From an uncultured Acidobacteriota bacterium (GTDB lineage Bacteria; Acidobacteriota; Thermoanaerobaculia; Multivoradales; UBA5704): a stretch of 64,000 nt of DNA. Where the stretch lies: the NCBI GenBank assembly GCA_963756455.1, contig CAVWNC010000004.1, positions 824,074 to 888,073 on the forward strand, read 5' to 3'. Each line of letters opens with the position of its first letter. Positions within the stretch are counted from its first letter, which is position 1. Under the pieces are notes generated by a model, which was not told where the DNA came from, did no database searches, and saw nothing but the letters and a program-made list of their open reading frames with translations. Positions 18,704 through 55,193 of this stretch are shown piece by piece. Made by a program: the position numbers and the translations under genes.

Positions 18704-18869
18704 GTGCTCCTCCTCGCCTAGAGGCCGCCGGAAAAGAGTGCCTGGCCGCCATCAGGAAGCAGCGAAAGCCACTCCTGTTCCTTCTCCATCTCTGTGGAGA
18801 CGAGTATACCGGCGGTCGTGGCGAGTACGTGGGAACTCAGGAATCCTTCAGAGTCCTTGCGGTAGGGCT

Positions 18870-22750: not shown

Positions 22751-25700
22751 ATGTTCGACGGAGTGAGTACCAACGACGAGCCTGGCCGGCTACCTGCCGC
22801 CGCCCCAGAAGAGCACAGGCCGAGCGCCGCAGATACCCCTGTCGTCCCCGCGGGAACGTCGGGCGGAGCTCTGGCGTCTCCCGACGAAGACGCCACTTTA
22901 GAGCTCGAAGCGCTCGCCGATAAAGCCCGTTCGCACCGCGAGGCGGCTGGCGAATTCATAGACGCCTCCGTAACACTGCCCGCCCAAGCCACAGCCACCG
23001 CGCTGCGCCGGAGGCCGGCACCTGCCGAAGGCGAACGGGCCGCGGTCGTCGGATACCTCGGTCAGTACGAGTTCGCCGCCGCACGAACCCTACAGGCTCT
23101 ATTGGATGGCACCTTGGTCTCGGTGCGTGTGGCGGATATCAAAGCCGGGCAGATCGACGACTTCCAGGTGCAGTCGACCGAGCTCGTGGATGCCCATCAG
23201 GTCAAGTGGAGCCTTCACCCCGGAAGCATAGGTTACGCGGAGTTCGTCCGCGACACGGAGGGTCGGACGCGCTACATGCGGCAACTGGCCGATGGTTGGG
23301 AGCGACTCACTGCACTTCACCGCCCGCGGCGAGTCGTAGTGCATTTCGTTACCAACAGCCTCCCCTCGATCGGTGCCAGCCAGTCGATCCCACGGCCGGC
23401 CGGCCCTCGGGCCGATGGGGCTGTCCGGACCCGGAGCTTCGCCGCCTTCCTGGCCGAGGCGTGGAAGCCCGCCGTCGAGACGGCACGTGCGGGGGCCGAT
23501 CCGGAGGGCGTGGTACCCGCGCACTGGGCTCCCGCCATGGCGGCGCTCGTTGACGCGAGCGGTCTCGACGCCGATGCGTGGCGCCGTTTCCTTGCCGACT
23601 GCGAGCTCGAGTTTGGTGTGCCGAGCCTTGAAGCCAGAATCGCGTCCGCGTTGGGGACCGACACCGAGCGGGCGGTGCTCCGCGAAGATGCCAACCGATT
23701 GGCGCATGCGTTCATGCAACTCGTCGCGCGCCCCGACCGTCATATCGAGTTCACTCGCGAGCAGCTACTTGACGAACTCGGCTGGCGATACCGCGCAGAA
23801 TTCAAGTCTGAGCACGAGTTCCCCGACCCCGAGATCCCGTATCGGAACATCTCAGAGACGGTGCGCGAGGTCACCACCGCTATCGAACAGTTCACGGGCG
23901 GCTACCTCGCCGTCATCGGGTCGCCGGGGTCGGGGAAGTCGACGCTCCTCACGCGAACACTGCGCGAAAGCGCGTACCGCGTAATTCGCTATTACGCGTA
24001 CGTACGCGATGCAGTCGGCGGGAGTCTCCGCCGAGGCGAGGCGGTCAACTTCTTCCACGACCTGACAGTCGCGCTCGACCGGACGGGATTCCGCGTCGGC
24101 ACCACTCTGCCCGTCGACAACCTCGACCTCCTCACGGTCCGCGTGTATGCGCAGCTCGCGCAGGCTCACGCGGAATGGGCGGGGGGAGGCAAGCGCACGA
24201 TCGTCCTCGTCGATGGGCTTGATCACATTCCTCGCGAGCAGCAGCCGACGCAGTCGCTATTAAACCACCTGCCCCACCCGGAAGATGTGCCGGGCGGCGT
24301 GCTCTTCGTGTTGGGCACCCAGACGGACCGCCTTGAGGGCATCTCGCCGCGCATCCGCGAACAGCTCGATGAGTTGGGGCGACGCATCACGATGCGCCCC
24401 CTCGAGCGCCAAGATGTGCTCGATATTGTCGAGTCAGCGACCGATCTGGCCCCCGCACCCACCCAGGCCGAGCGTGAGCGTATCTTCGAGCTCAGCGCCG
24501 GGCATCCCCTTTCCCTCAACTACATTATCAACCGTCTGCGCCACGCTTCCGATACCGCGGTCGTGGACACGCTCAATGATGTCGAACCGTTCCGCGAGGG
24601 AATCGACCGACAGTACGCCACCCTTTGGGGCACCGCCGAGGACGATGTCAACCTCGCGCGCCTGCTCGCTCTGCTCGCCCGCGCGCGCGGTCCCGTACGA
24701 CTCGATTGGTTGCGCCGCTGGGCACCACACCAAGCGCTGCACACCGTCACGACGCGCCTCGCCTACCTGTTTCGTCAGGAACATGGCGGTCGTTGGGCGT
24801 TCTTCCACAACAGCTTCCGCGCCTTCCTCATTGAGCGCACCCGCGGGATGCCCGCCCTCGGTGGCGACATTGACCTGTTTATCGAGCTAGCCGATCGCTG
24901 CGCGGCGACGGATGCTCGCGAGCCTGAGAGCGCTGACGAGCTCTACTATCGTGCGCGGACTGGCGACACCGCGCGTGTCCTGGGTCTCGCTGACCCCGAG
25001 ATATTCCGCACGCAGTTCGTGGCTGGGCGGTCCGCGACAATTATCCGTGACGATCTCGCCTTAGCTCTGGATGCCGCCGTGATGAGGCGCGACATCGTCG
25101 CGCTCACGCGGGTTCTGCTGTGCAGCGGGGAGTTCGCCCAGCGGGAGTATTACGCGAAGCGGCTGCCGCTTGCCGAGGCGTGGCTTGAACTCGGCGATAT
25201 CGACCTGGCGCTCGGCGCGCTCCGAGAGGGTGCCTCCCTGCGCACGTCGCGGGGGGCTGCGTTGCGCGCGGCGGCTGCGCTCGACACACGAGGCTTCTCC
25301 TTGGAAGGGCGCGAGGTCTTCACGCTCGCAGAGCCGCTCGACGTGCTCCGCGGAACCTCAGAGAGGACTCGTGCACCTCGCGACGAGATCGACCTTCTCC
25401 ATGCCTGGATCACCGTCGCGCCCCGCTTCCGGTCGGTGCCCGTGCTCCTCGAGAGGATCGAACACGCACAAGCGGCTGCCGATGAGGTGTGGCCACGCGC
25501 CGAGCAGAACCAGACCGACCCAGACGAGACCAAGGCTCGCCAAAATCGGCTATTGCAAGGACTCGCGGTCGCCCTTGATGAACTGGAACGGCGGGAAGAT
25601 GCCGACGCGGTACGCGCGACACTCCGCGGCCGGGACGGGGCGGTCGGCTGGTGGTTCTGGTCGCAAGCGCGGGGATGCTACGATGCACTCGCCGCTGGCG

Positions 25701-28700
25701 ACCGGTCGGGGGCAGAGGCTAGGTTCGGCGTCTTGCGCGAAGCGTTTGAGCAGGGTGAGCTCCCGGAGGAAGTCCTCGAGCCGGCGGCACGCATCGCGAT
25801 GGCGGGAGGCTACCTCCGGATCGCATGCGACGCCGATGCAGCGCGGCGCGTGCTCGGGAACGTCGGGCAGCCGGCCCCTGTTACTGAAACGTACGGGCAC
25901 GGTGAGGGCTGGAACCCGTTCCATGAGCTCTTCTCGCTTAACCGGGCACTCGGTGCCCTCGGTGACCAGCGGCCACTTCATGAGATCGTGCCTGACGTGC
26001 CAGCTGGGTCGGCGTCAATGCAAGGTCGGAGGGAGGAAGGCACTGCACTCGTCAGAAAGTTCGAGCGCGGGGTTGTGCATCTCGGCCGTCTGGCCGGACG
26101 CATCTGGGTGGGAGAGCGCTTAACGCCACCCGACTTCGAGCTCTCCGTGCGGCCGCTCGTCCGCCTTTTCCCCGATCACCCAAATCTGGTGAGCGGGGCC
26201 TACGTCGCACTCGCTGCGCGCGGCGAGTTCTACACGCGCCTCGTTCAGGTTGCGTCGGACCAGGGGGCGGAGTGCGTAGCTGTACTTCAGCGACTGTTTG
26301 AGGCCGAGTGGTCCGACGAGGCGCGGCGCAACGCATGGCCGGACTCTGTCGTGCGCGTGATCCTCACCGAGTCGCTCTCGGCCGGCGCGCCTGCGGACTG
26401 GGTGCGGAGTTGGCTCGCGCAAATCGAGCCGACGATGTTCCGCGGTGAAGAGCTCGAGACCAGCCTGACCGACGGCGTTGCGCAGGTACGCGCGTGGGTG
26501 GCCTCTGGAGACATCGTCGCGGCGCGAATAACCCTCGAGCGTGTTCTTCGCGCAACCTTCGGGAACGAGTCGAAAGACGGCCAGTTGACCACATGTCTCA
26601 AGTGGGCGGTCCACGCCAACCATGAGGACCCTGCGCGCACACCGGAGCGGCTTGGGCAGATGGCTGCAGCAATTCTCTCCATCGCCGGTACTGAGGCGCA
26701 GGGCTACGTCGGGCCGCACTTCCTTGAGGCGGGCGTGGCAGCGGGAGCTCGGCCAGCCCGTGCCGTTGTCGAATGGGCGCTGAGGACCGGCGTGCAGAGG
26801 TGGGCGGAAGCGCTGACGATCCTAATCGACGGGTTCGCGACGCGCGCCCCGGTCGCAGCGGGGGCGCTCTCTGCGTGCTACCGCTCGCTGGTGCTTCCAT
26901 TCGCGCGGGCTGCGGATGTCGACTCCGTCGCGCATCTGAGCGCAGCACTCCGCACGGCAGAGGACACGGAGGAGTTCGACGCACTGGCAGAGGCCATCGA
27001 AGTCGTGGCGCTTGGCTCGACGCGCCCGGCGCTTCGTGAGGCAGTGGCAGGACACCCGGAAGATGCCGCAGAACTCCTGCGTGACGCGATGGCGGGAGAC
27101 GCCAGGGCTCCCAGGCAGATCGTCGACGCGTTCGAGGGTTTGTCACTCACGTTGGGCGAGCTGCAGGCGCGTGTTCAGAGCGTCGCGGATGTCGAGGACC
27201 TCGCCCAGCGGCTCAAGCCGAATGCGTACTTGTACCAGTGGGAGCTCATCCTCGCCCCGTTCCTCGCCAGAGCGGCGGCGGACGAGCTGATCGCCACGGC
27301 TGCTGCGATACCGCAGAACGAGTGGAGAGTCCTGGCCACTATCGCCGAGCGGCTCCTCGACCTGGGCGACTCACGAGCAGGGGCGGTGGTGGCACACGTT
27401 CTCCGAAGCTCGCGAGCCGCCGGGTGGTGGACGCACTACGACGGCGGCAGCCGCCTTACCGCGTATGAGCTCCTAAACCGCGTCTCTGCGGAGAATGGTC
27501 GAGATGCGGCGTGGCAAGCCCTGCGAAACGATCTCGCCGCTGGCGAAGTGGGGCCGATTGACGTCTTCCGCGAATGGCACCGCGTGGTACCGGTACTAGC
27601 GCCTGGTACGCCGGCGGTAAATATCTGGGAGGTGGTCTCGCAGCACGTGGCGGCTCTCGTTGCGTGCGCGCCGCAGGGCGAGCCGCTCGTGGTCCCAGCG
27701 GCGGAGGATCCCAGCAACCCCGCGGCGGCGGCCGAGGCGGTGTGCGAGCTCGTGGCCAGCTATCTCGATCACCATGCCCTCGCGCTTTCGCAGGGGGCAC
27801 AACAGTTTTTCACGGACCGGTTGCTCGCCGCGGATGCAGTCGCAGAAGCGACACTGGCAGCGCGGCTTTCGGATATTGACACCCCGAAAAATGGTGCGCT
27901 CCTAGTCCTGCGCGCCGTTACCCGCGTGCATGGCACGGTGCCTTCGTCGATGCAAGAAGCCTTGCACGCGCTGCGCGAAGCGCCGAGTTTTCCCGACCGT
28001 CGGATTGCTCTCGCGCTCAGCGTCCTTCACGAGGGAGCCGGCAACGTCGACGGCGCTGGGATAGCTAGGGTCGTTCCTCCGCCGGGGATCGTGCGGCCGC
28101 TCCCGCCGGTCTTCAGTCTCGTGCATCCGCCGGCACCGGCACAACGCAACCGACCGTTGCCCGGGCGAGGTGAGATGCTCGAGCCGGCCGAGGATGCGGC
28201 GGCCCTCGTGTCGTTGTTCCGCCCGGAGCTCGATCTCATCGCGGAATGGGCTGGCGTGCAGCCGGAGGCGCTGTACCAGTACGTCGCCGATCGCGCCATC
28301 GCCAGCCTCCCTGAGGGTAGCCGAGACTACGCGTTTAATGAGGAGCCGGCGCTCCGTAACGAGATGAGTCGCCTTGGGCTCGAGGTCACATACCGGCGCC
28401 CGCGCCCACGTCGAGTTGAGCGAGCGATGGCCGAGGCAATAGCCATGCTTGTCGACCACGGCTGGCTCGGGGAGCGATACCTGCCGGCGCTCGACCGGCT
28501 CTTCCGAAGTGCCGATCCGCACTTCCTCGTCGTGCGGCCTACACGACGGCCTTCGATCGTAGCCCCTATCCGCGAGCGCGCGGACGCTCAGTATGTTGGA
28601 AGCGCCTGGACGGCAGACGTGAGATCGGACGACGCGGTCACTGGGCGCACGATGCCAACCGTGTCGAGTCTGTCAGTCGATCGCAAACGAGGAGAAATGA

Positions 28701-29389
28701 CCGAATCGCAGCCGTCCAATGCATTTAACGACGCTGCTGTTGCCGATAGATCGGCGGGAACTGCCGACGATGGCTGGATCGTGCTGGCGGAGGAGACGTG
28801 GCTTCGGTGGCTCGACTGGAAACAAGCCACGGAGACACGTGTCGCGGCCCGACTTGAGCCCAAGGTTTGGGCATCGATCGATCCCGAGGAAGCTTCCGAG
28901 AAGGCCGCGGACCCGGACGACATCAACGGTGATGCCGCGGCGGGCCAAGCGCTTGCAATACACGTCGCCGAGTTCTCGCACCTTACAGCGGACGAGTACC
29001 TCATTCGCGCCCGCGCCTCCTACTCGATCGTCGTCCGCAATCTCACTTATCGCTTCGAGACGCCGGGAGGGGGATGGCTCGGCCTCAATCCATCTTTGGC
29101 CGAACACCTTGGGTGGCGGCCTGCCCCGGACGGTCTGTTTCGCTGGATCGATGCAGATGGAAAGATCGTCGCGGAGTCCGTCTGGTGGCAGGACGGCTTC
29201 GCGCAACAGTGGCCTCCCCTCTTCGACGATGAGGTCGGTTATGGATGGCTGGTGCGCGTCTCCGCCAGCGGTTGGCAGAACCTATCGACCGCTGTCGGCG
29301 CATGCGTTGACTGGCGGCGGGTTGCCCGGCTTGCCCAAAAACAGCCGCCGAAAAGCGTGGAGGAGTGGACTCCAGTCTCCATCGCATAG
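22751..29389 (+). CDS. Avs (AVAST)-like STAND ATPase with N-terminal PD-(D/E)xK nuclease and long helical sensor region
   Basis: AVVGYLGQY..GQIDDF..HQVKWS nuclease motif; GSPGSGKST; VLVDGLDH; GHPLSL; FFHNSFRAF; 2212 aa; start codon uncertain. Confidence 0.8.
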   Translation: MFDGVSTNDEPGRLPAAAPEEHRPSAADTPVVPAGTSGGALASPDEDATLELEALADKARSHREAAGEFIDASVTLPAQATATALRRRPAPAEGERAAVVGYLGQYEFAAARTLQALLDGTLVSVRVADIKAGQIDDFQVQSTELVDAHQVKWSLHPGSIGYAEFVRDTEGRTRYMRQLADGWERLTALHRPRRVVVHFVTNSLPSIGASQSIPRPAGPRADGAVRTRSFAAFLAEAWKPAVETARAGADPEGVVPAHWAPAMAALVDASGLDADAWRRFLADCELEFGVPSLEARIASALGTDTERAVLREDANRLAHAFMQLVARPDRHIEFTREQLLDELGWRYRAEFKSEHEFPDPEIPYRNISETVREVTTAIEQFTGGYLAVIGSPGSGKSTLLTRTLRESAYRVIRYYAYVRDAVGGSLRRGEAVNFFHDLTVALDRTGFRVGTTLPVDNLDLLTVRVYAQLAQAHAEWAGGGKRTIVLVDGLDHIPREQQPTQSLLNHLPHPEDVPGGVLFVLGTQTDRLEGISPRIREQLDELGRRITMRPLERQDVLDIVESATDLAPAPTQAERERIFELSAGHPLSLNYIINRLRHASDTAVVDTLNDVEPFREGIDRQYATLWGTAEDDVNLARLLALLARARGPVRLDWLRRWAPHQALHTVTTRLAYLFRQEHGGRWAFFHNSFRAFLIERTRGMPALGGDIDLFIELADRCAATDAREPESADELYYRARTGDTARVLGLADPEIFRTQFVAGRSATIIRDDLALALDAAVMRRDIVALTRVLLCSGEFAQREYYAKRLPLAEAWLELGDIDLALGALREGASLRTSRGAALRAAAALDTRGFSLEGREVFTLAEPLDVLRGTSERTRAPRDEIDLLHAWITVAPRFRSVPVLLERIEHAQAAADEVWPRAEQNQTDPDETKARQNRLLQGLAVALDELERREDADAVRATLRGRDGAVGWWFWSQARGCYDALAAGDRSGAEARFGVLREAFEQGELPEEVLEPAARIAMAGGYLRIACDADAARRVLGNVGQPAPVTETYGHGEGWNPFHELFSLNRALGALGDQRPLHEIVPDVPAGSASMQGRREEGTALVRKFERGVVHLGRLAGRIWVGERLTPPDFELSVRPLVRLFPDHPNLVSGAYVALAARGEFYTRLVQVASDQGAECVAVLQRLFEAEWSDEARRNAWPDSVVRVILTESLSAGAPADWVRSWLAQIEPTMFRGEELETSLTDGVAQVRAWVASGDIVAARITLERVLRATFGNESKDGQLTTCLKWAVHANHEDPARTPERLGQMAAAILSIAGTEAQGYVGPHFLEAGVAAGARPARAVVEWALRTGVQRWAEALTILIDGFATRAPVAAGALSACYRSLVLPFARAADVDSVAHLSAALRTAEDTEEFDALAEAIEVVALGSTRPALREAVAGHPEDAAELLRDAMAGDARAPRQIVDAFEGLSLTLGELQARVQSVADVEDLAQRLKPNAYLYQWELILAPFLARAAADELIATAAAIPQNEWRVLATIAERLLDLGDSRAGAVVAHVLRSSRAAGWWTHYDGGSRLTAYELLNRVSAENGRDAAWQALRNDLAAGEVGPIDVFREWHRVVPVLAPGTPAVNIWEVVSQHVAALVACAPQGEPLVVPAAEDPSNPAAAAEAVCELVASYLDHHALALSQGAQQFFTDRLLAADAVAEATLAARLSDIDTPKNGALLVLRAVTRVHGTVPSSMQEALHALREAPSFPDRRIALALSVLHEGAGNVDGAGIARVVPPPGIVRPLPPVFSLVHPPAPAQRNRPLPGRGEMLEPAEDAAALVSLFRPELDLIAEWAGVQPEALYQYVADRAIASLPEGSRDYAFNEEPALRNEMSRLGLEVTYRRPRPRRVERAMAEAIAMLVDHGWLGERYLPALDRLFRSADPHFLVVRPTRRPSIVAPIRERADAQYVGSAWTADVRSDDAVTGRTMPTVSSLSVDRKRGEMTESQPSNAFNDAAVADRSAGTADDGWIVLAEETWLRWLDWKQATETRVAARLEPKVWASIDPEEASEKAADPDDINGDAAAGQALAIHVAEFSHLTADEYLIRARASYSIVVRNLTYRFETPGGGWLGLNPSLAEHLGWRPAPDGLFRWIDADGKIVAESVWWQDGFAQQWPPLFDDEVGYGWLVRVSASGWQNLSTAVGACVDWRRVARLAQKQPPKSVEEWTPVSIA

Positions 29390-35281: not shown

Positions 35282-35308
35282 TCCAGAGGGGACAAGTCCC
35301 CCCCTGGA
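35282..35308 (-). other. GC-rich hairpin 3' of the last variable region (terminator or DGR target hairpin)
   Basis: TCCAGAGGGGAC-AA-GTCCCCCCCTGGA, 50 nt past the stop, after CTCTG repeats. Confidence 0.55.
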
Positions 35309-35357
35309 CTCCCCCTTTCAGAGACCCGGAGAAAACAGAGTCCAGAGCTTTCAGAGA

Positions 35358-35480
35358 TCAGAGCGGGAATGGGGAAAGCACAACCCGAAACCCTATGTAG
35401 TCGCGCCGGTAGTTCGGGAAGCTCCAGCCGCGGGCGGCGCAGCGGACGTTCCTCGCAGCGTCGTCGAACGCCCCGCCGCG
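35358..35480 (-). repeat. DGR-type variable region VR-a
   Basis: 123 nt colinear with the other two copies; NNC codon variation. Confidence 0.8.
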
Positions 35481-38400
35481 AACTATGCGTAGAACTTGCG
35501 CCGATGCTTTCAAAACTTCGCGACCATCTCCGGCTGCGTAGGGATAGCCCTCCTCGACGCTCCGCGTCCACTCCCAAACGTTCCCGCTCATCTCCTCGCA
35601 GCCGAAGGGGCTCGCTCCACCACCGAAGCTGCCCACCGAACTCGGTTCGAGGAGACCCGTTCTGTCGAAGTTCGCCCGATTCGGATCCGCCTTCACTCCC
35701 CAGGAGAAAATCCTTCCATCTGTGCCTCGTGCGCCTTTCTCCCACTCCGCCTCCGACGGCAGGCATACCCTCAGATTTCCTGCAGCCAGACCAGGCCAGG
35801 GCCCACCCCCCCCATTCCTACTCCCTTCCCCCAACTCGCGTAGCCGCTCGCCCAGCCACCCGCAGTACGCCAACGCGTCGAACCACGGGACCGACGTAAC
35901 CGGATGGTTCGACGGACCCTCCAACTCGCTCACCTCTAACGGCTCATAGCCGGACTCCTTCACGAACAAACGGTACTGCGCCACCGTGACCGGGTAACGA
36001 GCCAACCAATATCTCGGCAATGTCACCTCGTGCCTGGGCCTTTCCTCCTCAGCTGACGAGGGGTCGACCTTCCTATCGCTCCCCATTAGAAAAGGCAACC
36101 TGCCGGAACCTCCACAAACCCGAGGAACGGCTCCGCCGGCAGATACCACCTCGCCGCATCGAACCGCGGATCTCCCAGAACCGCGAGCGACTTGCCCGCC
36201 GCCGCCCGCTCCCGCGCCGGAAAGCTCTCGGAACGGAGCAGGTGCAGCTGCCACCGCCGAACCCGCTCGAGCTTCGGCTCGTCCTCCTCGTCCAGCTGCG
36301 CCAAGTTGGCCGACTCCGTAAGCGCCTGCCCTGCGAGCAGAGCCCCCCAATCGTCCGCCGCACCGGTCCCCGCACCCCCCGGCTCCCGGAAGCAGAGAGC
36401 GTCCGCCAGTTGCCACACGCTCGACTCCGCGCCCCGCGCCGCCTTGGCACCCGCTAGGAGCACCGCCTCCCGCCAACGCCCCGGGTCTTCCCGGCCCAGA
36501 CGCGCCGCGCCCTTCGGAAAGTTGCGAGACGTCAGATGGCACGCCGCCAGGTACTCCTGAAACGTCCGGTGCGGGAATGTGTAGACCCCTTCTCCCCGCT
36601 CGACCAGGAGCCCTGCCCGATCGCGCAGGTAGTCCATCAGCTGCCGGAAGTCCGCGTCGGGATTCCGGCTGAGGCGGAGCAGCCGACCGACCAGCTTCCC
36701 CTCCTCCACATCCGCCGTGTCCTCCAGCCCCAACTGCGCGCTGTGGGCCTCAAAGGCCGCCGCATCGAGCGCCTGCCGGACCTCCTCACGGTCGACCTTC
36801 AGCCACTCGGCCAGGCTCGCCGGAGCCAGCACCGGAGCCCCCGACTCGTCGACTTCCAGCCGCCGCCGCTCCCAGGTGTTCAGGAGCAGCTCGACCGTCT
36901 CCGCGTAGAGTTGCTCCCGCCGCTCCGGCAGGATCCCGCTCTTCCAGGCGTGGAGGCTCGCCATCAGGGTCAGGAGGAGCGGCCGCTCCGCCAAGCTGAG
37001 CAGGCGGTCGCTCGCGAAGATCGCCCGCCGCAGACGCTCCGCTCTCCCCCGCGCCTCCGCCTCCGGGAGCCTTCCCTGGGCTGCCATCTGGGCGTACCAA
37101 AGACCGACGAAGCGATCGATCTGCCCGCGGCTGAACGGCGCCAGGACCGCCTCCTCGAAGCCCCGCACCCACCACTCCGGCTTCTGGTAGGCGTAGGTCC
37201 GGCTCGTCAGCACCACCCGGCTCGTTCCCAGGCTGCCCGCGAAGGCCTCGATCGCCTGGCGGATCTGCGGTCGCCGCAGCTCCGCCTCCGGCACCTCGTC
37301 AAGGCCGTCCAGGAGCACCAACCCGTGCCCTTCGAGCAGCTCCTTCCGCACCTCGGGGTACACCTCCGACAACCCGGCCCGCGTGAGCTCTCGCTCGAGG
37401 AACCTCCAGAGATCCTCCGCCGCCGCACACTGCCCCGGCGGAGGCAGCCCCCGGACCGCGAAGTCCCGCAGGACCACCCGCACCGGGAACAATGGGCCAT
37501 GGTTCCAGGGCTGGGGCTCCTCACCCTCCTGTCTATCCTCGCCGGGCAAGGGCGAGGTCAGGAGCTGGAGGTTCGCCTCGTTCCAACCCAGGAGCTCCCC
37601 CGCCATCGACAGGGCCAAGAAGTTCACAAAGGTGCTCTTGCCGCTCCCGGGTTCGCCCAGGAGCACCAAGCGAGGATGCCGGTTGAGCTGCTCCAGAGCG
37701 GAGAACGGGCGGTTCTCCCGGCCGACTCGGAGGGCCTCTCCCGGCTCGCCGCGCTCGCGCGCCGAGCGCGTCAGGAGAGCGGTGTAGATCGCGTGCAGGC
37801 GGAGCCGCGCCTGCCGATCCGTGGCGAGAGCCGGATCGACTCCGGTCAGGTCCAGGAACCCGGTCTCGTCGACCACCTGGCGCAGGTAAGCCTCCCGCAG
37901 CGAGCTCCGACTCGGACCGGCTGACGCCGGCGCCGCCTGCGTGATGGTGACGTTTCCGCCCGCGGCGATCCCGCCCGCTCCGGCGGCCACGGCGCCGGCC
38001 CCGTTCGCCGCCGCGCCGTCGCCCCGCACCTGGACCCGAATAGTCTCTCTCTGGATTCGGAGCCCGGCCAGCACCGCTTCCGCCTGCTCGGGAGGCAGAG
38101 ACGCCCGCAACACCGCCTCGTTCGCGAGAGCTGCCTCGACCTGGGCCAGCATCTGGCCCAGGTCTTCCCGCTCCGGGACCTCAGCCACGGTCCCGAGGAG
38201 CCTCCCGGCATTCCCGGCCACGGTGTGCCGATTACGACGTCCCCTCCGGCCGCGATCCCATTCTTGCCGGCCGCCACCGCTCCGTCCCCCTGGGCGATCG
38301 CTCCGCCCCCCTCCACCTGCGCCCAATTGGCGCGCGGGCCGGCCGCCTTCAGGAGCTCCGCGATCTCGCTCGCGAAGCCCGGATTCGCGGTGAGGATGTC

Positions 38401-38659
38401 TTCGAGATGGAGCTCGACCGCCCCCTGCGCCCGCGAATCCTGGGGCCGTCTCGCCAGGCACCTCGACTGCTCCCTTCGCCCCTTCCTGCGCCGCGACCTG
38501 GGGGCTGACCTTCCCCCAGAGCTTCTTGGCCTTCTCCCATACCCCCTCGCCAAATTTCTTGGCTGCCTCCTTGCCCACTTCCTCGCCGGCCTTTTGCAGG
38601 TACGGGAGGAAGGGAGTCAGGTACAAGACCAGATCGTGCGCGAGCGTCGCAATGTCCAT
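35358..38659 (-). CDS. NLR-like protein 3: helical N-domain, two amyloid-like motifs, NACHT, FGE/CLec (frameshifts near 38459, 38220 and 36098; may be two genes)
   Basis: GEPGSGKST, LLDGLDEV, RPLLLTLMA, FPHRTFQEYLAA, LPSEAEWEKGARG, MSGNVWEW, GFRVV. Confidence 0.85.
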
Positions 38660-38679
38660 CGGCGGTCTCCTTTCAGAGT

Positions 38680-38802
38680 TCAGAGCGGAAATGGGGAAAG
38701 CACAACCCGAAAGCCTAAGTAGTCGCTCCGGACGAACGGGTTACGCCAGTCTCGGAAGGCGCAGCGACCTTTCCTCCTGTTGTAATAGAACGCCCCGCCG
38801 CG
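38680..38802 (-). repeat. DGR-type variable region VR-b
   Basis: 123 nt; RGGAFYYNRRKGRCAFRDWRNPFVRSDYLGFRVVLSPFPL. Confidence 0.75.
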
Positions 38803-41695
38803 AGCCACGCGGAGGCCTTGTGCTGATGCCTCTAAATCTTCGCGACCATCTCCGGCTACGTAGGGATAATTCTTCCTGACGCTCCGCGTCCATTCCAGAA
38901 CGTTTCCGCTCATTTCTTCGCAACCGAAAGGGCTGGAGCCGCCGGGGAAGCACCCGACGCTGCTCGGTTCCCCCATCCCCGTGTCAGCAAAGCTGGCTCG
39001 GTTCGGGTCCACCTCGCTGCCCCAAGGAAAGATTCGGCTTTCCAAGCCACGCGCAGCCTTTTCCCACTCCGCCTCCGACGGCAGGACCGCCCGTAACCTC
39101 CCCGACGCCAATTCCTCCCAGAATTCGTCCCCTTGCCCTCGCCTCTCAACCGCCAACTCCCGCAGCCGCTCCCCCAGCCAACCGCAATACGCCAGCGCAT
39201 CCTCCCAGCTCACCCAGACCACTGGAGCGTTCGAAGCACCCTCCAGACTCCGCGCATCGCCCACCTTTCCGCCGCTCGCCGCGACGAAAGCCCGGTACTG
39301 CCCCACCGTCACCGGAAATTTCGCCATCCAGTACCCCGGCAGCCGCACCTTACGTCGCGGCGACTCGTTGCTGTGAGCGCCTGGATCGTCCTTCCGGTCG
39401 TTTCCCATCGGGAACGCCCCCTCCGGCACCTCCACGAACCCCAAGGTCTCATCCTCCGGCAGAAACCAATGCTTCTCGTCGAAGCGAGTGTCCCCCAGCT
39501 TCGCCAGTGCCTTACCCGCCTCCCCTCGCTCCCGGGCGGGGAAATGCTCGGCCTGCAGCAGGTGCAACATCCACTCCCGCAGCCTCTCGAGCTTCGCCAC
39601 GTTCGCCTTCCCTACCCGATCCAGATCGGCCGATTCGGCGACCACCTGGGCGGCGAGGAGCGCTCCCCATTCGTCTTCCGGCTCAGCCCTCCCCTCGCCG
39701 GGCGGCGGACCCGCGCACATCGCCTCCGCCAGGTACCAGACCACCCCCCTCCCCATCTTGGCTCCCACCAAGAGAACTACCTCCCGCCAGCGGTCCGGGT
39801 CCTCCCGGCCCAGCCTCGCCACCTCGTCGGGGTAGGTGTCGGCGCCGGTCAGGTAACAAGCCGCCAGGTACTCCTGAAACGTCCGGTGCGGGAATGCGTA
39901 CCTCCCGCGGCCGCGCGCCAGGAGCAGTCCAGAACGATTCTCAAGATAGGACAGCAGTTGCCCCGTATCGACCTTCCCCCTCGTCTCGCCGCCCGCCGGG
40001 CTGCGGAGAGCAAGGAGCCGTTCGACCAGCCTCCACCCGGGCACGTCCGCGGTTCCCACTCGCTCGGCCTGCCCCTGATGGGCCTCGAAAGCCAGCTCCT
40101 CGAGGGCCTTCCGGACCTCGCTCCGGTCGACCTTCAGCCAGGCGGCGAGGCTCGGCTCCGTGACCACCAGCTCGCCCTTGCGGCCCAGCCGGGCGCGCTG
40201 CTTCTCCCAAACGTGGAGCAGCAGCTCGACCGCCTCCTCGTACAGCTGCTCCCGACGTTCCGGCAGGTCGCCGCCCCGCAGAGCATGGAGGCTCGCCATC
40301 AGGGTGAGGAGGAGCGGCCGCTCGGCGAGACCCAGCAGACGGTCGCTCGCGAAGATCGCCCGCCGCAGGAGCGCGCCGCGGCCTTGCGCCAGATCTTCCG
40401 GCATCCTCCCCAGGGCCACCTGATGCTCGTACCAGAGCTCCACGAACCGCCCGATTTGGGCCGGGCGGAACGGCGCAAGAATCGCCACCTCGAAGCCCGG
40501 CAAGCGGGCGCCCGGATCCTGGTACGCGTAGGTGCGGCCGGTCACCAGCACTCGGCTCTCCCCGATTCCCATGGCGAAGTCGGCGACCGCCTCGCGCACC
40601 TGCAGGCGGCGGTCGTCCGACTCGGGGACCTCGTCGAGGCCGTCGAGCAGCACCAGAGCGCGACCGGCGATGAGCCTCCCGCTGGAGGATCGGAAAGAAT
40701 CCGCCATGCCCGGCTTTCTCCAGATCTTTCTCAAGAAACTCCCAAAGGCGGCTGGCCGTCGCCGGCTCTCCGGGCTCTCCCAGAACTCCCGTGCTGGCGA
40801 AGTCCTGCAGCACCACCCGCACCGGCAGGAGCCGGCCGCGGCTCCAGGGTTGGGGCTTTTTCTCGCCGTCCTCCTCCCCCTCCGGCAGGGGAGCCCGAAG
40901 CTTCTCCAGGTTGGCGTCCGCCCGCCCCAGCCCCTCCCCGGCCAGGCAGAGCGCCACATAGCTGACGAAGGTGCTCTTCCCGCTCCCCGGGTCGCCCAGA
41001 AGGACCAGCTTGCGGTGCCGGTCCAGTTGCTCCAGGGCCGAGACCGCCACCCGCTCCTCGGCCCTCGTCTCCCGGTCCTTCCCCGGCTCGAACCGGGCCG
41101 AGAGGGTCAACAGCGCGGTGTACACCCCGGGAAGCTTCAGCCGCGGGTCCTCGTGGCGATCGGCGATCTCGCGATCGAGGACCGAGAGTGGCAGGATTTC
41201 GGTCTGCTCGATCACCCGCCCGAGATAGGCCCGCCACAGGACGTCCTCGCCGGGACCGAAATCGGCGACGCCTCCATGGAGATGAAGGTTCACGTCCCGG
41301 CCGGCCCCGATCCCGTCCGTCACCGCAACCGAATGATCGCCGAGCGCCATCGCCCCCGGGATCTCGCCGAGCCGCCTCTCGACATCCTCCGCGAGGCTCA
41401 AGTCGGCCGCGAGGATCTCCTGGAGATGCCGTTGCCAATCGTCTCGTGCCGGACCCGTCTCCGGTCCCAGGGCCGCTGCTCTCGCGGCCTGGATCGCTTC
41501 GGCCTGCCCTTCTACATTCTGCCGCAATCGGTTCCAGAGGCTCTGGAGCCCCTCGGGAAGGGGAGGACGACGACCGGCCGGTTGGCCGGCCTCTCCCATC
41601 GTCTGTCCTGTCCCCTCGACGTTCCCTTGGACCAGTTCCGGCAGTACCGGCGCGAGCGCCGCCGCCAGGGCCTCCGCGATCCGACCGATCTCCAA
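38680..41695 (-). CDS. NLR-like protein 2: helical N-domain, NACHT, FGE/CLec (frameshift near 40675)
   Basis: TTG start after AAAAGGAG; GDPGSGKST; LLDGLDEV; FPHRTFQEYLAA; LPSEAEWEKAARG; GFRVVLSPFPL. Confidence 0.85.
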
Positions 41696-41724
41696 GGCTG
41701 CTCTCCTTTTGCGCGTGTCAGAGA

Positions 41725-41847
41725 TCAGAGCGGGAACGGGGAAAGCACAACCCGAAATCCTACGGAGACGAGCCGGCCGTCCGGGAAGTGCCAGTTGCGG
41801 GCGGCGCAGCGGACGTACCTCGAGGTGAAGTCGAACGCCCCGCCGCG
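41725..41847 (-). repeat. DGR-type variable region VR-c
   Basis: 123 nt; RGGAFDFTSRYVRCAARNWHFPDGRLVSVGFRVVLSPFPL. Confidence 0.8.
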
Positions 41848-49900: not shown

Positions 49901-52339
49901 CTCTTCGGCTTCGAGGCCCGCCCGCACACGGCTCAAGTCGATAGCGAGAAGAGGGCTGTGCGCGAGAAACGCTTTCGCTATGGCAATAAAGAGCGCGACG
50001 AGCTCACGGCCGATGAGAAACACCTGCGCGAGATCGACGAGACGAGTCGCTTCCTCCCCGTCCTCTTCTGCTCGCCGACGATGGAGCTCGGCGTCGACAT
50101 CTCGGCCTTGAACGCCGTCTACCTGCGAAACGTCCCACCGACGCCGGCCAACTACGCGCAGCGCAGCGGTCGCGCTGGCCGGAGCGGCCAGGCCGCTCTC
50201 GTCGTCACGTACGCCGCGGCGCAGAGCCCGCATGACCAGTATTTCTTTCGTGATCCCAGGGCCATGGTCCATGGCGAGGTTCGCCCGCCGCTCCTCGATC
50301 TCGCCAATCGCGATCTCGTCAACAGTCACCTCCAGGCGGTCTGGCTCGCCTGCACCGAAACGCTGCTGAGCCCATCGATCGCCGATCTTCTGGAGCTTTT
50401 GGACGCGAAACGCCCGCTCAAGGAGGAGTTGAAGCAGCCCATGGCCGAGCCCGGTGTCGCGGCACGGGCAATCGAGCGGATGGGGCGAGTGCTCGACCTC
50501 CTGGCCGACGACCTCACCCCCGCGCACGCCCCCTGGTATATCGGGGGACGCGACGCGTATGCCGCCGCCGTCGCTCAGGAGGCGCTCGCCCGCTTCGATG
50601 CCGCTTTCAAACGCTGGCGTGATCTTTTTACCGCTGCCGAGCAGCAACGCGATGCCGCTCGCCGCATCATGGACAACTACGCCGCGCCACAGGAGGAGAA
50701 GCGAGCTGCCAAGAGCCGGCACACACAGTCGATCGACCAGCTGGACCTGCTCCAGAAAGGCACCAGCACCCAGTCGAGCGACTTCTATACCTACCGCTAC
50801 CTCGCGACCGAGGGGTTCCTGCCCGGCTACAACTTCCCGCGGCTGCCGCTCATGGCCTACGTGCCGGCGACGAGCGACAACCATGGCAAGCAGACGTATT
50901 TGCAGCGGCCCCGCTTCCTGGCCCTCTCCGAGTTTGGGCCGCGCAGTCTGGTCTACCACGAGGGCCGCGCCTACCGCGTTGTGCGCGCGCTCCTCGCCCT
51001 AGGCCCACAGGACGCCGCCACCGCCGAGGTCCGCCTGCCGACGCAGTCCGTGCGGATCTGCCGCGCCTGCGGCGCCGGCCACTTCGACGACCAGGCCTCG
51101 CTCTGTCGCGGTTGCGGCGTCTCGCTCGGCAATGCCGAGATCGTCAACGATATCTTCCGGATCGAAAACGTGGCGACGCATCCGGCCGAGCGCATCACCG
51201 CCAACGACGAGGAGCGCCAGCGCCAGGGATTTGAGTTGCAGACAACCTTCGAGTGGGCGATGCGCGACCAGCTGCCCGACGTACGGAACGACAACGCTAG
51301 CGACGGCGCAGGCGTTGTCGTCCGTCTCTCCTACGGTCCTGGAGCGACGATCACGCGCCTCAACAAGGGACTTCGCCGCCGCGCTGACCGTACCAAATTC
51401 GGGTTCAGCATCGATCCCGTCTCCGGCTGGTGGGCCAAGAATGAGGACGAAGACGACGAGCCCTCCGACCCAACCGTGTCAGCTCGGCAGAGGATCGTGC
51501 CCTCGGTGCGCGATCACAAGAACGCTCTCCTTCTCCAGCCCGCTGACCCGCAGCTCTCGTCGCTCACTCTGACCACGATCCAGCACTCCTTGCTCCGCGG
51601 CATCGAGGCGGTCTTCCAGCTCGAGCAGGGCGAGATCCTCGCCGAGCCCATGCCCAGTCGTGAGGCTCGTAACGGATTCCTCCTCTATGAGGCGGCGGAG
51701 GGCGGCGCCGGTGTCCTCACCCGTCTCGTCGGCGAGCCGACGCGGCTCGCCGAGGTGGCGAGGAAGGCCCTGGCGATTCTGCACTTCGACATCGAGGGTC
51801 AAAGCGGCCTTCCCGCCGAGGCCGAGGCGCTCGTCGATCTGCCGGATACGGCTTGTGTCGCGGCCTGCTATCGCTGCGTGATGTCGTACTACAACCAGCC
51901 GGATCACGAGCTCCTCGACCGCCGTGACCCGCAGGCCCGGAGCGTCCTGCTGCGGCTCGCCCGCAGCAGCACCTCCGGCCTCGATGCCATACCGGGGAGC
52001 CGCTCGACGCTGGACGCCGAAGTCGGCTCCCCTGCCACGCTCGACCCAGCGCTCGCCCACTGGCTCGCTCTCGCCCGAGCCCGCGACTTGCCACCTCCCG
52101 ACCCCAAGCCGCTCTCCCTGATTCCCGCTGCCGAGGGCGGCGAGGCTCGCCTGCCGCTCGTCTGGCGCACTCACTACGTCGCGGTGCTCCTTGATGATGC
52201 CATGCCCCAACACCTCGACCGGCTCGCGGACCGCGGCTTTGAGGTCATCACCTTTCCCGCGGCCCCTTCCGCCGATCCTCTCGTAGCATGGGATGAGCCC
52301 TTCCGTCGTCTTGCGACCGCCCTCGGACGGAGCGCATGA
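46979..52339 (+). CDS. Large YprA-like DEAD/DEAH helicase with DUF1998 (DrmA/B- and DruE-related)
   Basis: TTGTGSGKS, YPMNALANSQ, LDELH, TSAT, FTDNRQDA, SPTMELGVDI, QRSGRAGR, CVAACYRC..YYNQ. Confidence 0.88.
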   Translation: MGAKNMDAFALRDSVVDEYKSFATSFTTIFAQDIRQQVDAIYAEGRFWPEPLLQINPSYRRSKTVGELVASGMLQPGCAEIFQDSGEPLRLYKHQEQSIALASQDESFVVTTGTGSGKSLCFFIPIVNSVLAEKAVGGEKRTRAIIVYPMNALANSQLEELDKFLSNVSGPRPITVARYTGQENSDQRHQIAEDPPDILLTNFMMLELLMTRQDEIDRRVIGNCAGLRFLVLDELHTYRGRQGADVALLVRRVRERLSPERLQCIGTSATMASEGSQVDKNHLVAEVASRLFAAPIPDSNVVVETLERVTNPDISEPWVLAALGPAIDAGIPPHISDSGLRTHPLAIWIETRLGIEWSDLDQRWGRARPRTVTEAVAVLAADARRAPDACQVALRELLLLSSIPETERTGDPNANSHSFFAFKLHQFISGAGHAFATLEPPGSRIVTVEGQQFLPGAPEKRLYAVHFCRECGHEYHPVRLVNEAGERIFLPRNIDDAPPKPPDSDDAAELTGEEDPDREEFGFLTLHATDPGFDFAGREEQYPETWLEIGPKGIQRLLRNYRAARPHPFLVAPTGKVGSGIQAWFLPGRFRLCLRCRETQSTSAKDRTRLASLSAEGRSSATTVLVTSALRWMHGLDSGLEGFTRKLLGFTDNRQDAALQAGHFNDFLFVSLIRAGFLGALETAGPAGLRSDQLGLAQQRALGFDRPDPELRAEWLLEPALKGFAVQDAEATLRQVLAYRVWFDQRRGWRYTNPNLEQLRLVQVRYLGLEELASDETAFADAPAVLRQASPQVRADVYRELLDHLRKWMAVRSQVLEPTSIEQMLQRSYSRLRVPWGFGSDEKPRRAGWLMIASPPRKDVKLRDQDLIVRGGSRSALGKALRSSDLWGGNAIRSLKPKELDALVASLLSAASMHGLVSEEVTPFGSHTGWRLNDGCVEFHLGEASRDAALDRENAFFCDLYGNLAQLLREVGHPLFGFEARPHTAQVDSEKRAVREKRFRYGNKERDELTADEKHLREIDETSRFLPVLFCSPTMELGVDISALNAVYLRNVPPTPANYAQRSGRAGRSGQAALVVTYAAAQSPHDQYFFRDPRAMVHGEVRPPLLDLANRDLVNSHLQAVWLACTETLLSPSIADLLELLDAKRPLKEELKQPMAEPGVAARAIERMGRVLDLLADDLTPAHAPWYIGGRDAYAAAVAQEALARFDAAFKRWRDLFTAAEQQRDAARRIMDNYAAPQEEKRAAKSRHTQSIDQLDLLQKGTSTQSSDFYTYRYLATEGFLPGYNFPRLPLMAYVPATSDNHGKQTYLQRPRFLALSEFGPRSLVYHEGRAYRVVRALLALGPQDAATAEVRLPTQSVRICRACGAGHFDDQASLCRGCGVSLGNAEIVNDIFRIENVATHPAERITANDEERQRQGFELQTTFEWAMRDQLPDVRNDNASDGAGVVVRLSYGPGATITRLNKGLRRRADRTKFGFSIDPVSGWWAKNEDEDDEPSDPTVSARQRIVPSVRDHKNALLLQPADPQLSSLTLTTIQHSLLRGIEAVFQLEQGEILAEPMPSREARNGFLLYEAAEGGAGVLTRLVGEPTRLAEVARKALAILHFDIEGQSGLPAEAEALVDLPDTACVAACYRCVMSYYNQPDHELLDRRDPQARSVLLRLARSSTSGLDAIPGSRSTLDAEVGSPATLDPALAHWLALARARDLPPPDPKPLSLIPAAEGGEARLPLVWRTHYVAVLLDDAMPQHLDRLADRGFEVITFPAAPSADPLVAWDEPFRRLATALGRSA

Positions 52340-55189
52340 CGATCCCCGCCGCCACGTCGCAGCCCACCGTCCCGGCCAGTCAGGAGCTCTACAGCCCGGG
52401 TAGCCTAGTCAGCGCCCGCGGTCGGGAGTGGATCGTGCTCACGGGCAGCGACGCCGAGACGCTCCGCGTGCGACCCGTTTCCGGCTCGGAGGAAGACGGA
52501 ACATTCATCCACCTCGCGCTGGAGCCCGAGCCGGTGCGAGCGGCGCGCTTTCCGCGGCCTGGTGTGACCCAGCGCGCCAGCCACGACGCGGCACTCCTCC
52601 TGCGCGACGCCCTGCTCCTCTCTCTCCGCCGCGGCGCGGGCCCGTTCCGAGGTGCCGGTCAGATCGCCGTCGAGCCGCGCGCCTACCAGCTCGTGCCGCT
52701 CCTGATGGCGCTCAAGCTCGATCCGGTGCGCCTGTTGATCGCCGACGACGTCGGCGTCGGCAAGACCATCGAGGCGGCGCTCATCGCGCGCGAGCTCCTC
52801 GACCGTGGCGATATCGAGCGCACTGCCGTTCTCTGTCCGCCTCACCTCGTTGATCAATGGCTCGGCGAGTTGGAGACGCACTTCCACATCCGCGCGGTCG
52901 GCGTCACCGCGACGAGCGCCGGCCGGCTCGAACGCAATCTGCCGCCCTCCGAAAGTGTCTTCTCGGCGCACCCGCATACCGTGGTCAGCCTCGACTACAT
53001 CAAGAGCGACCGCCGCCGCGCCGACTTCTTGCGCACCTGCCCCGAGTTCGTGATCGTCGACGAGGCGCACACCTGTGCCGCGACGGGCGCGGGTCGCCAC
53101 CAGCGCTACGAGTTGCTCCGCGGCCTTACCGAATCGCCGACCCGCCATCTGGTGCTCCTCACCGCCACCCCTCATAGCGGTGACGAAGCCGCCTTCTTCC
53201 GGTTGCTCGGTCTCCTCGACCGCGACTTTGGCCGGCTCGCCGAGGCGACCGGCGAGGAGAGACTCCAACTCCGCGAGCGTCTCTCGCGTCACTTCGTGCA
53301 ACGCCGCCGACCCGACATCGCCGAGTGGAAGGAGGGCAACCTCTTTCCCCGCCGGGAGACGAAGGAGCTGACCTACGAGCTCACCGGCGGTTGGCAGAAG
53401 CTGTTTGACGGGGTTCTCGACTACTGCGCCGCCGTTGTCGACTCGGCAGCCGGAGACGAGCACCGCGCGCGGCTCAGCTTCTGGGGAACGTTGGCCCTCA
53501 TGCGCTGCGTAGCCTCGAGCCCGGCTGCGGCGGCGCAGGCCCTCCGCACCCGTGCCGGGCTGGAAGAGTCCGAGGATGCGGAGGCCCTCCTGGACCAGGT
53601 CTTCGACGGTGGTGCGGATTCGCTCTCGGAGGATGACGTCGAGCCCCTCGCCGGCAACGACGAGCCGGCTCTCGTGGGTCTTATTGCCCAGGCCGAAAAG
53701 CTTGCCGGCCAGACCGGTGACCCCAAGTTGAAGTTGCTCACCGCTCACCTGGGTGAGCTTGTGGCGGATGGTTTCAATCCGGTCGTCTTCTGCCGCTACA
53801 TCGCGACCGCCCACTACCTCGCGCGCCACCTAGAAGGCCAGTTCGCCGACGTGACGGTAGCGGTCGTGACGGGCGAGCTCACTGCGGAGGAGCGCCGGGA
53901 GAAGGTCGACGCCTTGGGGGACGCCGACCGCCGTTTGCTGGTCGCCACCGACTGTTTATCCGAGGGCGTCAACCTCCAGGATTTCTTCGACGCGGTCGTT
54001 CATTACGACCTCTCCTGGAATCCCACCCGCCACGAGCAACGCGAGGGGCGGGTCGACCGTTTCGGCCAGCCCTCTCGGGTCGTGCGTACGACTCTCCTCT
54101 ATGGCGCCAACAACCCCGTCGACGGTGCCGTGCTTGACGTCATCCTGCGCAAGGGTGCCCGCATTCGGGAGGAGCTCGGCGTGCCGGTTCCCCTTCCCGA
54201 CGATGGGCACACTCTGAGTCGCGCCCTGATGCAGGCGGTTCTCCTCCGCACCCGGGCGAAGGATGGACAGCGGCAGCTCACCCTCGACTTCCTGGAGCTC
54301 CCCGAAGCGAAGGCGATCGACTCCCGATGGCAGGACGCGGCCGAGAAGGCGAAGCAGAATCGCACGGTCTTCGCCCAACGCCGCCTCAAGCCCGAGGAGG
54401 CTCCTCCCGGAGTGGGAGAAGACTCTCGCCGCGGTCGGCGGCCGGGACGAGGTGCGCCGCTTCACCGATCGCTCGCTCGCCCGACTCGGCTCCGGGCTGG
54501 AGACTCTGCGGCGCGGCTTCAAGGTGCCGCTCGCCCCGCTTCCCGAGGAAGTGCGCGAGCGCCTCGAAGCCGAGGGGCTCACCGGCACTCTGCGCATCGA
54601 CTTTGCCTATCCGCCTGCGTCGGGTTGCCGGCCGGTGCAGCGCAGCCATCCACTGGTCTCCGTGCTCGCCGAGACTCTGCTCGAACGCACCCTCGCTTCT
54701 CCAGCGGATTCCACCGGTTCCGCGACTCCCACCGACCCGGGCGTGCTCGGCCGGGTCGGTTGCTGGGTGTCGGCCACCGTCGCGGAGCGCACGACGGTAG
54801 CGCTCCTGCGCCTTCGCCACCAGCTCGGCACCCAGCGGCCCGGCCGCGGCGCAACTACGCTTCTCGTCGAAGAGGCGACGGCTCTCGCCTGGATCGGCGC
54901 CGACGGCGCTTCGCTCGTCGAAGGCGCCGACGCATTCGCGCTCCTCGTCGCCTCACCGGTCGGCGACCCACCGCCGCACGTGCGCGACCGCATGGCGACA
55001 CAGGCGCTAGAGCTCGTGGCTCTCCGCAACGCGGACCTCGACGCCTTCGCCGAGCGCCGCGCCGAGGTGCTCCTTGCCGATCACCGCCGCATCCGAGAGG
55101 CCGCCGCCGCACGCGGCAGCTACAGCGTCAAGGCGCTTCTGCCGCCGGATGTCGTCGCTGTTTACGTTCTGCTCCCGCCGGTGAGCTGA
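52336..55189 (+). CDS. SNF2-family helicase, DrmD-like (frameshift near 54400)
   Basis: PGSLVSARGREW, LIADDVGVGKTIEA, VDEAH, LTATPHSG, SEGVNLQ, QREGRVDRFG; C-terminus continues in ORF 54263-55189. Confidence 0.88.
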
Positions 55190-55193
55190 CGCG

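Follow-up and report, generated by a model that had tools for sequence, protein, structure and literature searches.

A candidate Bell/BASS6 immune array with fused and split NOD-like receptors in an Acidobacteriota defence island

Described Bell/BASS systems and the array

Bacterial amyloid signalling sequences (BASS) are recognised by the same motif occurring at the C-terminus of an effector and at the N-terminus of a NOD-like receptor (NLR) encoded next to it (Dyrka 2020, bioRxiv 10.1101/2020.01.06.895854; here and below, statements on preprints and on PMC13581612 refer to the portions of these sources that bear on the array). In the pairs of the BASS6 class, the effector contains a five-helix Bell domain of ~100 amino acids (aa) with a hydrophobic helix 1 that has an acidic residue at position 2 or 3, the shared motif is Gly-rich and 25-35 aa long, and the two genes are adjacent, collinear and often overlapping. 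According to the same preprint, which gives a five-helix model of the domain, Bell mostly makes up proteins of 120-140 aa and is rarely found at the N-terminus of an NLR. Here we describe an array of NLR-like genes with a Bell/BASS6 module in a 64,000-nucleotide stretch of DNA, hereafter the window, from an uncultured Acidobacteriota bacterium (Thermoanaerobaculia; Multivoradales; UBA5704; GenBank assembly GCA_963756455.1, contig CAVWNC010000004.1, positions 824,074 to 888,073).

The array is a tight, operon-like run of paralogous genes encoding NACHT and FGE-sulfatase domains on the minus strand of the window (35358-44691). In genes A and B, a Bell-like domain, a Gly/Ala motif, NACHT and FGE-sulfatase are fused in one protein, whereas the third unit, when read in the frames of close relatives, consists of two genes, the free Bell-like effector C1 and the receptor C2. 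The array differs from the described Bell/BASS/NLR pairs in the sensor (TPR or WD there, FGE-sulfatase here), in the all-in-one architecture of A and B, with the motif kept between Bell and NACHT, and in the motif itself, which is the long, three-heptad form of the BASS6 class. The published work stressed filamentous Actinobacteria and Cyanobacteria, whereas the named relatives of the array come from metagenome-assembled genomes (MAGs) of Acidobacteriota and Gammaproteobacteria. What is new here is the Bell/BASS6 module on FGE-sulfatase NACHT receptors, with cis-fused and trans-split forms side by side; some such pairs may be contained in Table S2 of the Dyrka 2020 preprint.

Three other described systems are relevant. 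Bab/Agp (BASS11), an abortive infection system of E. coli (Ibarlosa 2024, bioRxiv 10.1101/2024.11.07.622273), has in common with the array a small helical, Bell-related effector with a 'MEPIS'-type helix and a C-terminal amyloid motif, an adjacent sensor that carries the same motif and, in that system, activates the effector, and a defence-island context. The 'MEPIS' N-terminal signature is common to Bell, Bab and some antiphage NLRs including Avs2 (bioRxiv 10.1101/2024.11.07.622273). The sensor of Bab/Agp is, however, TPR-GreA/B-C-PIN and not NACHT, its motif is BASS11, and its effector, the ~80-aa Babybell, is shorter; no sequence or fold match was obtained between the N-terminal domain of A and Bab/Agp. 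In HET-S/NWD2 of Podospora anserina, as presented in the two preprints, a killing domain and an amyloid motif are parts of a single protein chain, an N-terminal membrane helix is believed to be set free when the motif folds, and the NLR carries a templating copy of the motif. The HeLo fold and the HRAM motif of that system show no detectable sequence relation to the array proteins and, unlike HET-S/NWD2, the receptor itself carries the putative killing domain in A and B. Finally, defence STAND/NACHT NTPases (Nature 2026, PMC13581612) share with the array a C-terminal FGE-sulfatase sensor and a location beside defence genes. FGE-sulfatase sensors in defence STANDs have thus already been described (Fig. 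1 legend of that paper), and the words 'amyloid' and 'Bell' each have 0 occurrences in its main text.

The Bell-like domain and the Gly/Ala motif

The first 154 residues of A were modelled with AlphaFold2 (49-row alignment). The model consists of five helices (residues 3-23, 35-49, 52-63, 68-84 and 88-98), as in Bell, with a predicted local distance difference test (pLDDT) of 79-98 across residues 1-100. A phmmer search with the same 154 residues against 1.84 billion cluster representatives detected 667 representatives at E ≤ 1e-3 and 93 at E ≤ 1e-10; the family statistics given here come from 150 listed of the 667 matches. The family mostly consists of stand-alone proteins of 130-165 aa that end just after the motif: 125 of the listed matches have fewer than 200 aa, 20 have 200-499 aa and 5 have at least 500 aa. 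An acidic residue is present at positions 2-4 in 121 of the 150, and some members begin MEPIS or MEPIN. The array proteins likewise have the acidic residue typical of Bell, beginning M-D-I in A (where M is encoded by TTG), M-E-I in B and M-D-I in C1. In the short proteins, the Gly-rich tail has either a long form (GSGAIAQGPGAVAAGKGGIAVGGDV) or a short form (ASGERSVAIGGDVTGSTIVTGD). A strict regular expression detects the long motif in 38 of the 125 short matches, a number that understates motif presence because the other tails, by eye, are mostly of the short BASS6 form or otherwise Gly-rich. Single family members (among P0005-P0154) contain EAD7, TCAD2, CyanoTRADDas_TM or CHAT domains after the Bell-like domain.

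The link to the published classes is provided by the supplement of PMC8086366, in which Bell-side motifs are labelled C09; its README maps C09 to BASS6. The C09 entries include SGAIAQGQGAVAAGAGGIAVGGSVHGG... and DGAVAQGPGAVAAGKGGVAVGGDLHGGARIGGTEITGT, which are near-identical to motif strings of the present family. By eye, DGAVAQGPGAVAAGKGGVAVGGDLHGGARIGGTEITGT (entry C09_s023) is identical to the C-terminal end of a free Bell-like protein encoded in a related locus, L013, and the N-terminal domain of A is 41 % identical to that protein (E 2e-16). Given this tail in the BASS6 set and this identity to A, the domain falls within the authors' Bell set and the motif within the BASS6 class. As judged by sequence comparison, the N-terminal domain thus belongs to the Bell family and the motif to the BASS6 class, an assignment made through the published motif set rather than with the authors' own hidden Markov models (HMMs).

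A rival view is that the domain, rather than being itself a membrane-disrupting executioner, recruits another effector as a regulatory or adaptor bundle, perhaps a death-like one. Its membrane activity is proposed by analogy, and a wide fold search lists CARD, death-domain and bacterial death-like-domain chains (Z 3.5-3.8), although these values are within helical-bundle noise. The domain is, however, mostly a free protein of ~150 aa with nothing else attached, so that it must itself be the output, and the conserved acidic residue and hydrophobic helix 1 match the Bell/Bab signature. We therefore regard a recruiting role as very improbable. Other searches with the domain gave isolated matches. 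A profile search against PDB (positions 33-115 of the A1 profile) weakly matched (E 0.0016) the helical C-terminal region of a protein with ankyrin repeats (residues ~385-467; structures 7xql, 7kj6 and 7ew8). A search of the language-model Atlas led to actinobacterial clusters of ~140 aa, some of them annotated as HetE-N or RHIM; assignment to HetE-N (PF20701) was rejected, with 0 of 150 family members matching it at E ≤ 0.01.

The motif following the Bell-like domain consists of three heptads of the form G-x-G-A-hydrophobic-A-x and a final G-[GR]-[DN]-[VI], and is present in A, C1 and C2. The 8.9-Mb genome contains 89,295 six-frame open reading frames (ORFs) with 50 aa or more, and all of them were searched with an HMM derived from 22 such tails in the family. 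Significance was confined to three matches (E 1.6e-12, 1.4e-9 and 3.2e-9), those in A, C1 and C2, the next best having E 0.45; the motif therefore does not simply arise from high G+C content. An HMM of the short BASS6 form (ASGERSVAIGG...TGD; 14 tails) detected neither B (4.6 bits) nor any other match in the genome at E < 0.4. The relative P0005, 87 % identical, has one extra, fourth heptad in the motif. A contig of a close relative (X2, see below) contains a compensating insertion/deletion pair in the motif region of A (window 44309-44314).

In the AlphaFold2 monomer model, the motif of A is disordered (pLDDT about 50), and a four-copy complex prediction for residues 96-140 scored 0.20 against a mark of 0.42, which argues neither for nor against stacking. 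Alternatively, the motif could work like death-fold/EAD adaptors: a beta-roll of finite size, not amyloid, would join effector and receptor homotypically and stoichiometrically, with no prion-like templating or amplification. In favour of this, the YadA_head beta-roll repeat is weakly matched by 17 of 49 family members at E ≤ 1 and by 7 of 150 at E ≤ 0.01, the PDB profile search weakly lists a trimeric autotransporter adhesin (E 9.6), and a motif in cis, as in the fused forms, needs no propagation. The YadA_head matches, however, are below the Pfam cut-offs; they fit a beta-solenoid-like rung but prove nothing. Furthermore, this motif class was delimited on the same genomic grounds as BASS1, BASS3 and BASS11, which have been shown experimentally to form prions and fibrils (bioRxiv 10.1101/2020.01.06.895854; 10.1101/2024.11.07.622273). 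We consider a purely stoichiometric adaptor unlikely, and an amyloid-like signalling motif is assumed in the mechanism discussed below.

Fused and split forms in the array and its relatives

A scan of GTDB genomes detected 12 related loci, in Competibacteraceae, Thermoanaerobaculia, Holophagales, an Acidobacteriota MAG, a 'Rhizobium sp.' MAG and a Proteobacteria MAG. The motif HMM matches 12 of 12 Bell-like ORFs in these loci, as well as 10 P-loop ORFs in 8 of the loci, always upstream of Walker A. Sharing of the motif between the effector C-terminus and the N-terminus of the adjacent NLR is accordingly found in C1/C2 (in the relatives' frames) and in 8 of the 12 related loci, exactly the arrangement by which BASS were defined. 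All 11 P-loop ORFs near Bell-like genes, a hand-picked set not all of which match the motif HMM, encode NACHT and FGE-sulfatase. In L008, L011 and L013, one free Bell-BASS6 gene is flanked by two receptors and, in L007 and L012, a fused Bell-motif-NACHT-FGE gene adjoins a free Bell gene.

In two of the 11 receptors, an N-terminal PNP_UDP_1 phosphorylase domain followed by the motif replaces Bell. These receptors (L011 1870-5280 and L013 224-3751), in which the Gly/Ala motif is followed by NACHT and FGE-sulfatase, are encoded beside a free Bell-BASS6 gene and a second receptor. The presence of the same motif in the PNP_UDP_1 receptors implies that it serves more than one effector type. Another NACHT-FGE receptor (L008 3071-5920) has a hydrophobic, membrane-like N-terminus and then a motif-like Gly/Val/Ala stretch, with no Bell.

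An earlier note, made from the sequence of the window alone, had proposed that each paralog starts with a similar helical domain of ~100 aa followed by a Gly/Ala motif, that this domain is of the Bell type, and that the motifs pair it with adjacent NLRs in the manner of BASS. The five-helix model and the kinship of A with the L013 protein bear out the first two proposals, and the third agrees with the relatives, in which the same motif is present on free Bell C-termini and adjacent NACHT N-termini. The coordinates from the family HMM also place the four motifs (one each in A and B, two in C) where the note had located them.

A and B are, by their sequences, fused forms with the motif in cis, and this form recurs in related genomes. 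Among the phmmer matches, P0027, P0028, P0071 and P0072 are fused and have the motif, and P0046 is fused but lacks it. The family profile was compared to 61 genomes, 60 related ones and that of the window, and matched 21 of them, including 18 of 36 from the same family and 2 of 24 from other families of the order, the kind of patchy distribution that a defence gene should show. In other genomes, open frames of 979-1192 aa account for eight matches that start at the N-terminus; seven of these continue through the motif, to profile position 137 or further. A search for near-full-length homologues (8000 candidates scored) recovered A itself and one relative and is unusable for counting fused forms. 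All-in-one Bell NLRs are mentioned by Dyrka 2020 (bioRxiv 10.1101/2020.01.06.895854), where Bell homologues of at least 200 aa were removed before motif mining; in the portions of that preprint on Bell NLRs, we found no discussion of a motif retained in cis.

The third unit had been taken for a single paralog with two motifs. The two motifs stand, but comparison with close relatives indicates two genes. Contigs 90-95 % identical to the window, from two independent metagenome runs (X1 and X2), were aligned to positions 35300-44900. The window has one frame break in B (near 40675) and three in C (near 38460-38475, 38199 and 36095). At these sites, the relatives have one base fewer at 40671 (X1) or 40674 (X2), one fewer at 38459 (X1), one fewer at 38199 (both) and two fewer at 36095 (X1), so that all four breaks are extra bases in the window. 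When the relatives' frames are applied to the window, C1 ends with a TGA ~25 residues past its motif, and the C1 and C2 ORFs overlap by 8 nt. C2 begins with a helix plus the motif, and in this it is similar to separate receptors encoded in L008, L009 and L010. Because these frames yield two genes, the two motifs of the third locus would be the effector-side and receptor-side copies of a canonical pair, and on this sequence evidence we interpret the unit as a C1 (Bell-BASS6)/C2 (BASS6-NACHT-FGE) gene pair.

The extra bases are either assembly consensus errors or real lesions, and in the latter case the array would be largely decayed in this strain: B, C1 and C2 would be pseudogenes, A alone would be able to act, and cross-talk between paralogs would be moot here. 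None of the four breaks lies within a homopolymer run of more than 3 bases, and other long ORFs of the window are open (1786, 2212 and 1515 aa), which argues against a generally error-prone assembly. Conversely, the breaks are absent from the 90-95 % identical contigs, so that close relatives retain B, C1 and C2 in intact form, and consensus errors could account for all of them. We give decay in this strain a substantial chance, somewhat short of even. One short X2 contig (window 35325-38892) has a mosaic alignment, in which sequence from the 3' ends of B and C2 precedes the start of C1; this may reflect exchange between paralogs.

Identity among the paralogs, with the broken genes read through and X placed at each break, is lowest in the linker preceding NACHT (37-43 %) and amounts to 41-56 % in the motif, 44 % in the Bell domain (A-B), 55-63 % in NACHT, 62-63 % in the middle region and 63-70 % in FGE-sulfatase. 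By these identities, the diverging part is the effector-side module. The sensor had been expected to be hypervariable; FGE-sulfatase being the most conserved region speaks against that expectation.

Gene layout, defence-island setting and proposed mechanism

The features of the array are listed in Table 1. Each of the three units has a ribosome-binding site and a start codon. A starts with TTG downstream of AGGAGG; B begins 29 nt after A with its own GGAG and TTG; C1 has an ATG at 38659, 20 nt after B, and a TGA stop at 38183-38181; and C2 has a candidate GTG start at 38188, preceded by GGGAGG. The NACHT domain of A scores 32.6 bits against a Pfam cut-off of 26.7, and its FGE-sulfatase domain likewise exceeds the Pfam threshold; NACHT and FGE-sulfatase were also detected with Pfam across the pieces of B and C. 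With a Walker A-containing NACHT and a C-terminal sensor domain, A has the makeup of NACHT-clade STANDs. It also shows a weak partial match to the antiphage protein EruA (E 5.8e-8), far below the EruA cut-off. Upstream of A, codon-position GC content is that of coding sequence in the plus-strand ORFs 44877-45710 and 46032-46700 but not in the minus-strand ORF 44763-46604, which was therefore not accepted as a gene. Coding in this upstream region is thus on the plus strand, making A the first gene of the minus-strand array.

Table 1. Genes, domains and motifs of the array (window coordinates)
Feature	Coordinates	Strand	Remarks
Gene A	41725..44691	-	988 aa, intact; Bell-like domain, BASS6 motif, NACHT, FGE-sulfatase
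A, Bell-like five-helix domain	44392..44691	-	residues 1-100; helix 1 hydrophobic, begins M-D-I
A, BASS6-class motif	44284..44382	-	GSGASAV/GDGAVAA/GQGGYAA then GRDI; motif HMM, 40.3 bits
A, NACHT NTPase	43126..44049 (approximate bounds)	-	Walker A GDPGSGKST; Pfam
A, FGE-sulfatase (SUMF1-like) C-terminal domain	41746..42486	-	presumed sensor; Pfam, 157.6 bits
Gene B	38680..41695	-	fused architecture as in A; one frame break near 40671-40676
B, degenerate motif	41285..41356	-	GAMALGDHSVAVTDGIGAGRDV; position homologous to motif of A; best match 7.8 bits
Gene C1 (predicted)	38181..38659	-	stand-alone Bell-like + BASS6 effector; ~160 aa using relatives' frames; frame breaks near 38459 and 38199
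C1, BASS6 motif	38224..38325	-	GGGAIAQ/GDGAVAA/GKNGIAA/GGDV; alternate frame; motif HMM, 50.7 bits
Gene C2 (predicted)	35358..38188	-	short helix, BASS6 motif, NACHT, FGE-sulfatase; frame break near 36095
C2, NLR-side BASS6 motif	37937..38038	-	GDGAAAN/GAGAVAA/GAGGIAA/GGNV; motif HMM, 43.2 bits

The array lies in a defence/conflict island. On the plus strand (46979-59741), three large genes encode a DruE/DrmA-like helicase with MZB, a DpdE/DrmD-like SNF2 helicase and a DrmMI-like/type IIG methyltransferase, a set that resembles a DISARM/Dpd/Druantia-like defence module beside the NLR array. More conflict-system genes occupy positions 9280-29389, namely those for a 1387-aa WD40 protein, an AAA protein (13422-14402), a CHAT + iSTAND protein (14403-15962), a 744-aa protein with a partial FGE-sulfatase domain (16518-18752), a caspase (19690-22416) and a 2212-aa Avs1b-like STAND (22751-29389). 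The ORF 44877-45710, divergent from A, matches the N-terminal domain of the ArdC anti-restriction factor (E 1.9e-7), which hints that the island is located on or beside a mobile element.

We consider it likely that the array encodes an NLR immune module that is of the abortive-infection type and belongs to the Bell/BASS6 family. This view starts from the observed domain architecture, family membership, sharing of the motif between effector and receptor, patchy distribution and defence-island context. Several results weigh against it. No Pfam or NCBIfam model covers the first ~190 residues of A, including the N-terminal domain; a Foldseek search of the domain model against PDB gave no match at E ≤ 0.001; and in a wide VIA-align search, the best Z was 5.0, within helical-bundle noise, and no HeLo or MLKL chain was listed. 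PADLOC has no match for A. The motif-homologous stretch of B is degenerate and not significant alone, scoring 5.9 bits as a whole and 7.8 in its best match; B, C1 and C2 are frame-broken in this assembly, so that only A is certainly intact; and the sensor domains are not diversified among the paralogs. A full-text search for 'BASS6' retrieved no experiment on this class: among the matches listed, only PMC8086366 was relevant, the others being plant-transporter papers. The experiments in PMC8086366 concern BASS3-like and sigma peptides only, and those found in Dyrka 2020 (bioRxiv 10.1101/2020.01.06.895854) concern BASS1 and BASS3 only.

By analogy with HET-S/NWD2 and Bab/Agp, from which phage sensing, templating by oligomerisation, amyloid structure and membrane killing are extrapolated, such a module might work as follows. 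The C-terminal FGE-sulfatase would bind a trigger, probably a phage-derived molecule, and NACHT would oligomerise, bringing the Gly/Ala heptad motifs of neighbouring protomers together. The motifs would then fold cooperatively into a stacked, amyloid-like beta-arch or beta-roll, and this fold would be imposed on the motif adjacent to Bell, in cis in A and B and in trans in free C1. The hydrophobic helix 1 of Bell would be released, damaging the membrane and killing the cell. Cross-seeding between the paralogs may also be envisaged. A more specific proposal, that the cis motif is an obligatory conformational trigger of Bell, as in HET-S, and that the array is a many-receptors/one-fold network, is tentative and, in our view, rather doubtful. 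Should it be true, activated oligomers of A, B or C2 would seed each other's motifs and that of free C1, one ligand-bound receptor could recruit unliganded paralogs and so amplify killing, and effectors and receptors would often fuse and separate without consequence for function.

Bell/BASS signalling was proposed from genomics and, in the sources cited here, experimental demonstration was found for BASS1, BASS3 and BASS11 only. The present locus extends the BASS6 class to FGE-sulfatase NACHT receptors and, beyond the filamentous groups, to MAGs of Acidobacteriota and Gammaproteobacteria. Within one operon, it holds the trans split form, the cis fused form and a paralog with a decayed motif, and thus offers natural constructs for asking whether amyloid folding is needed when Bell is covalently attached to its receptor and whether paralogous receptors cross-seed.

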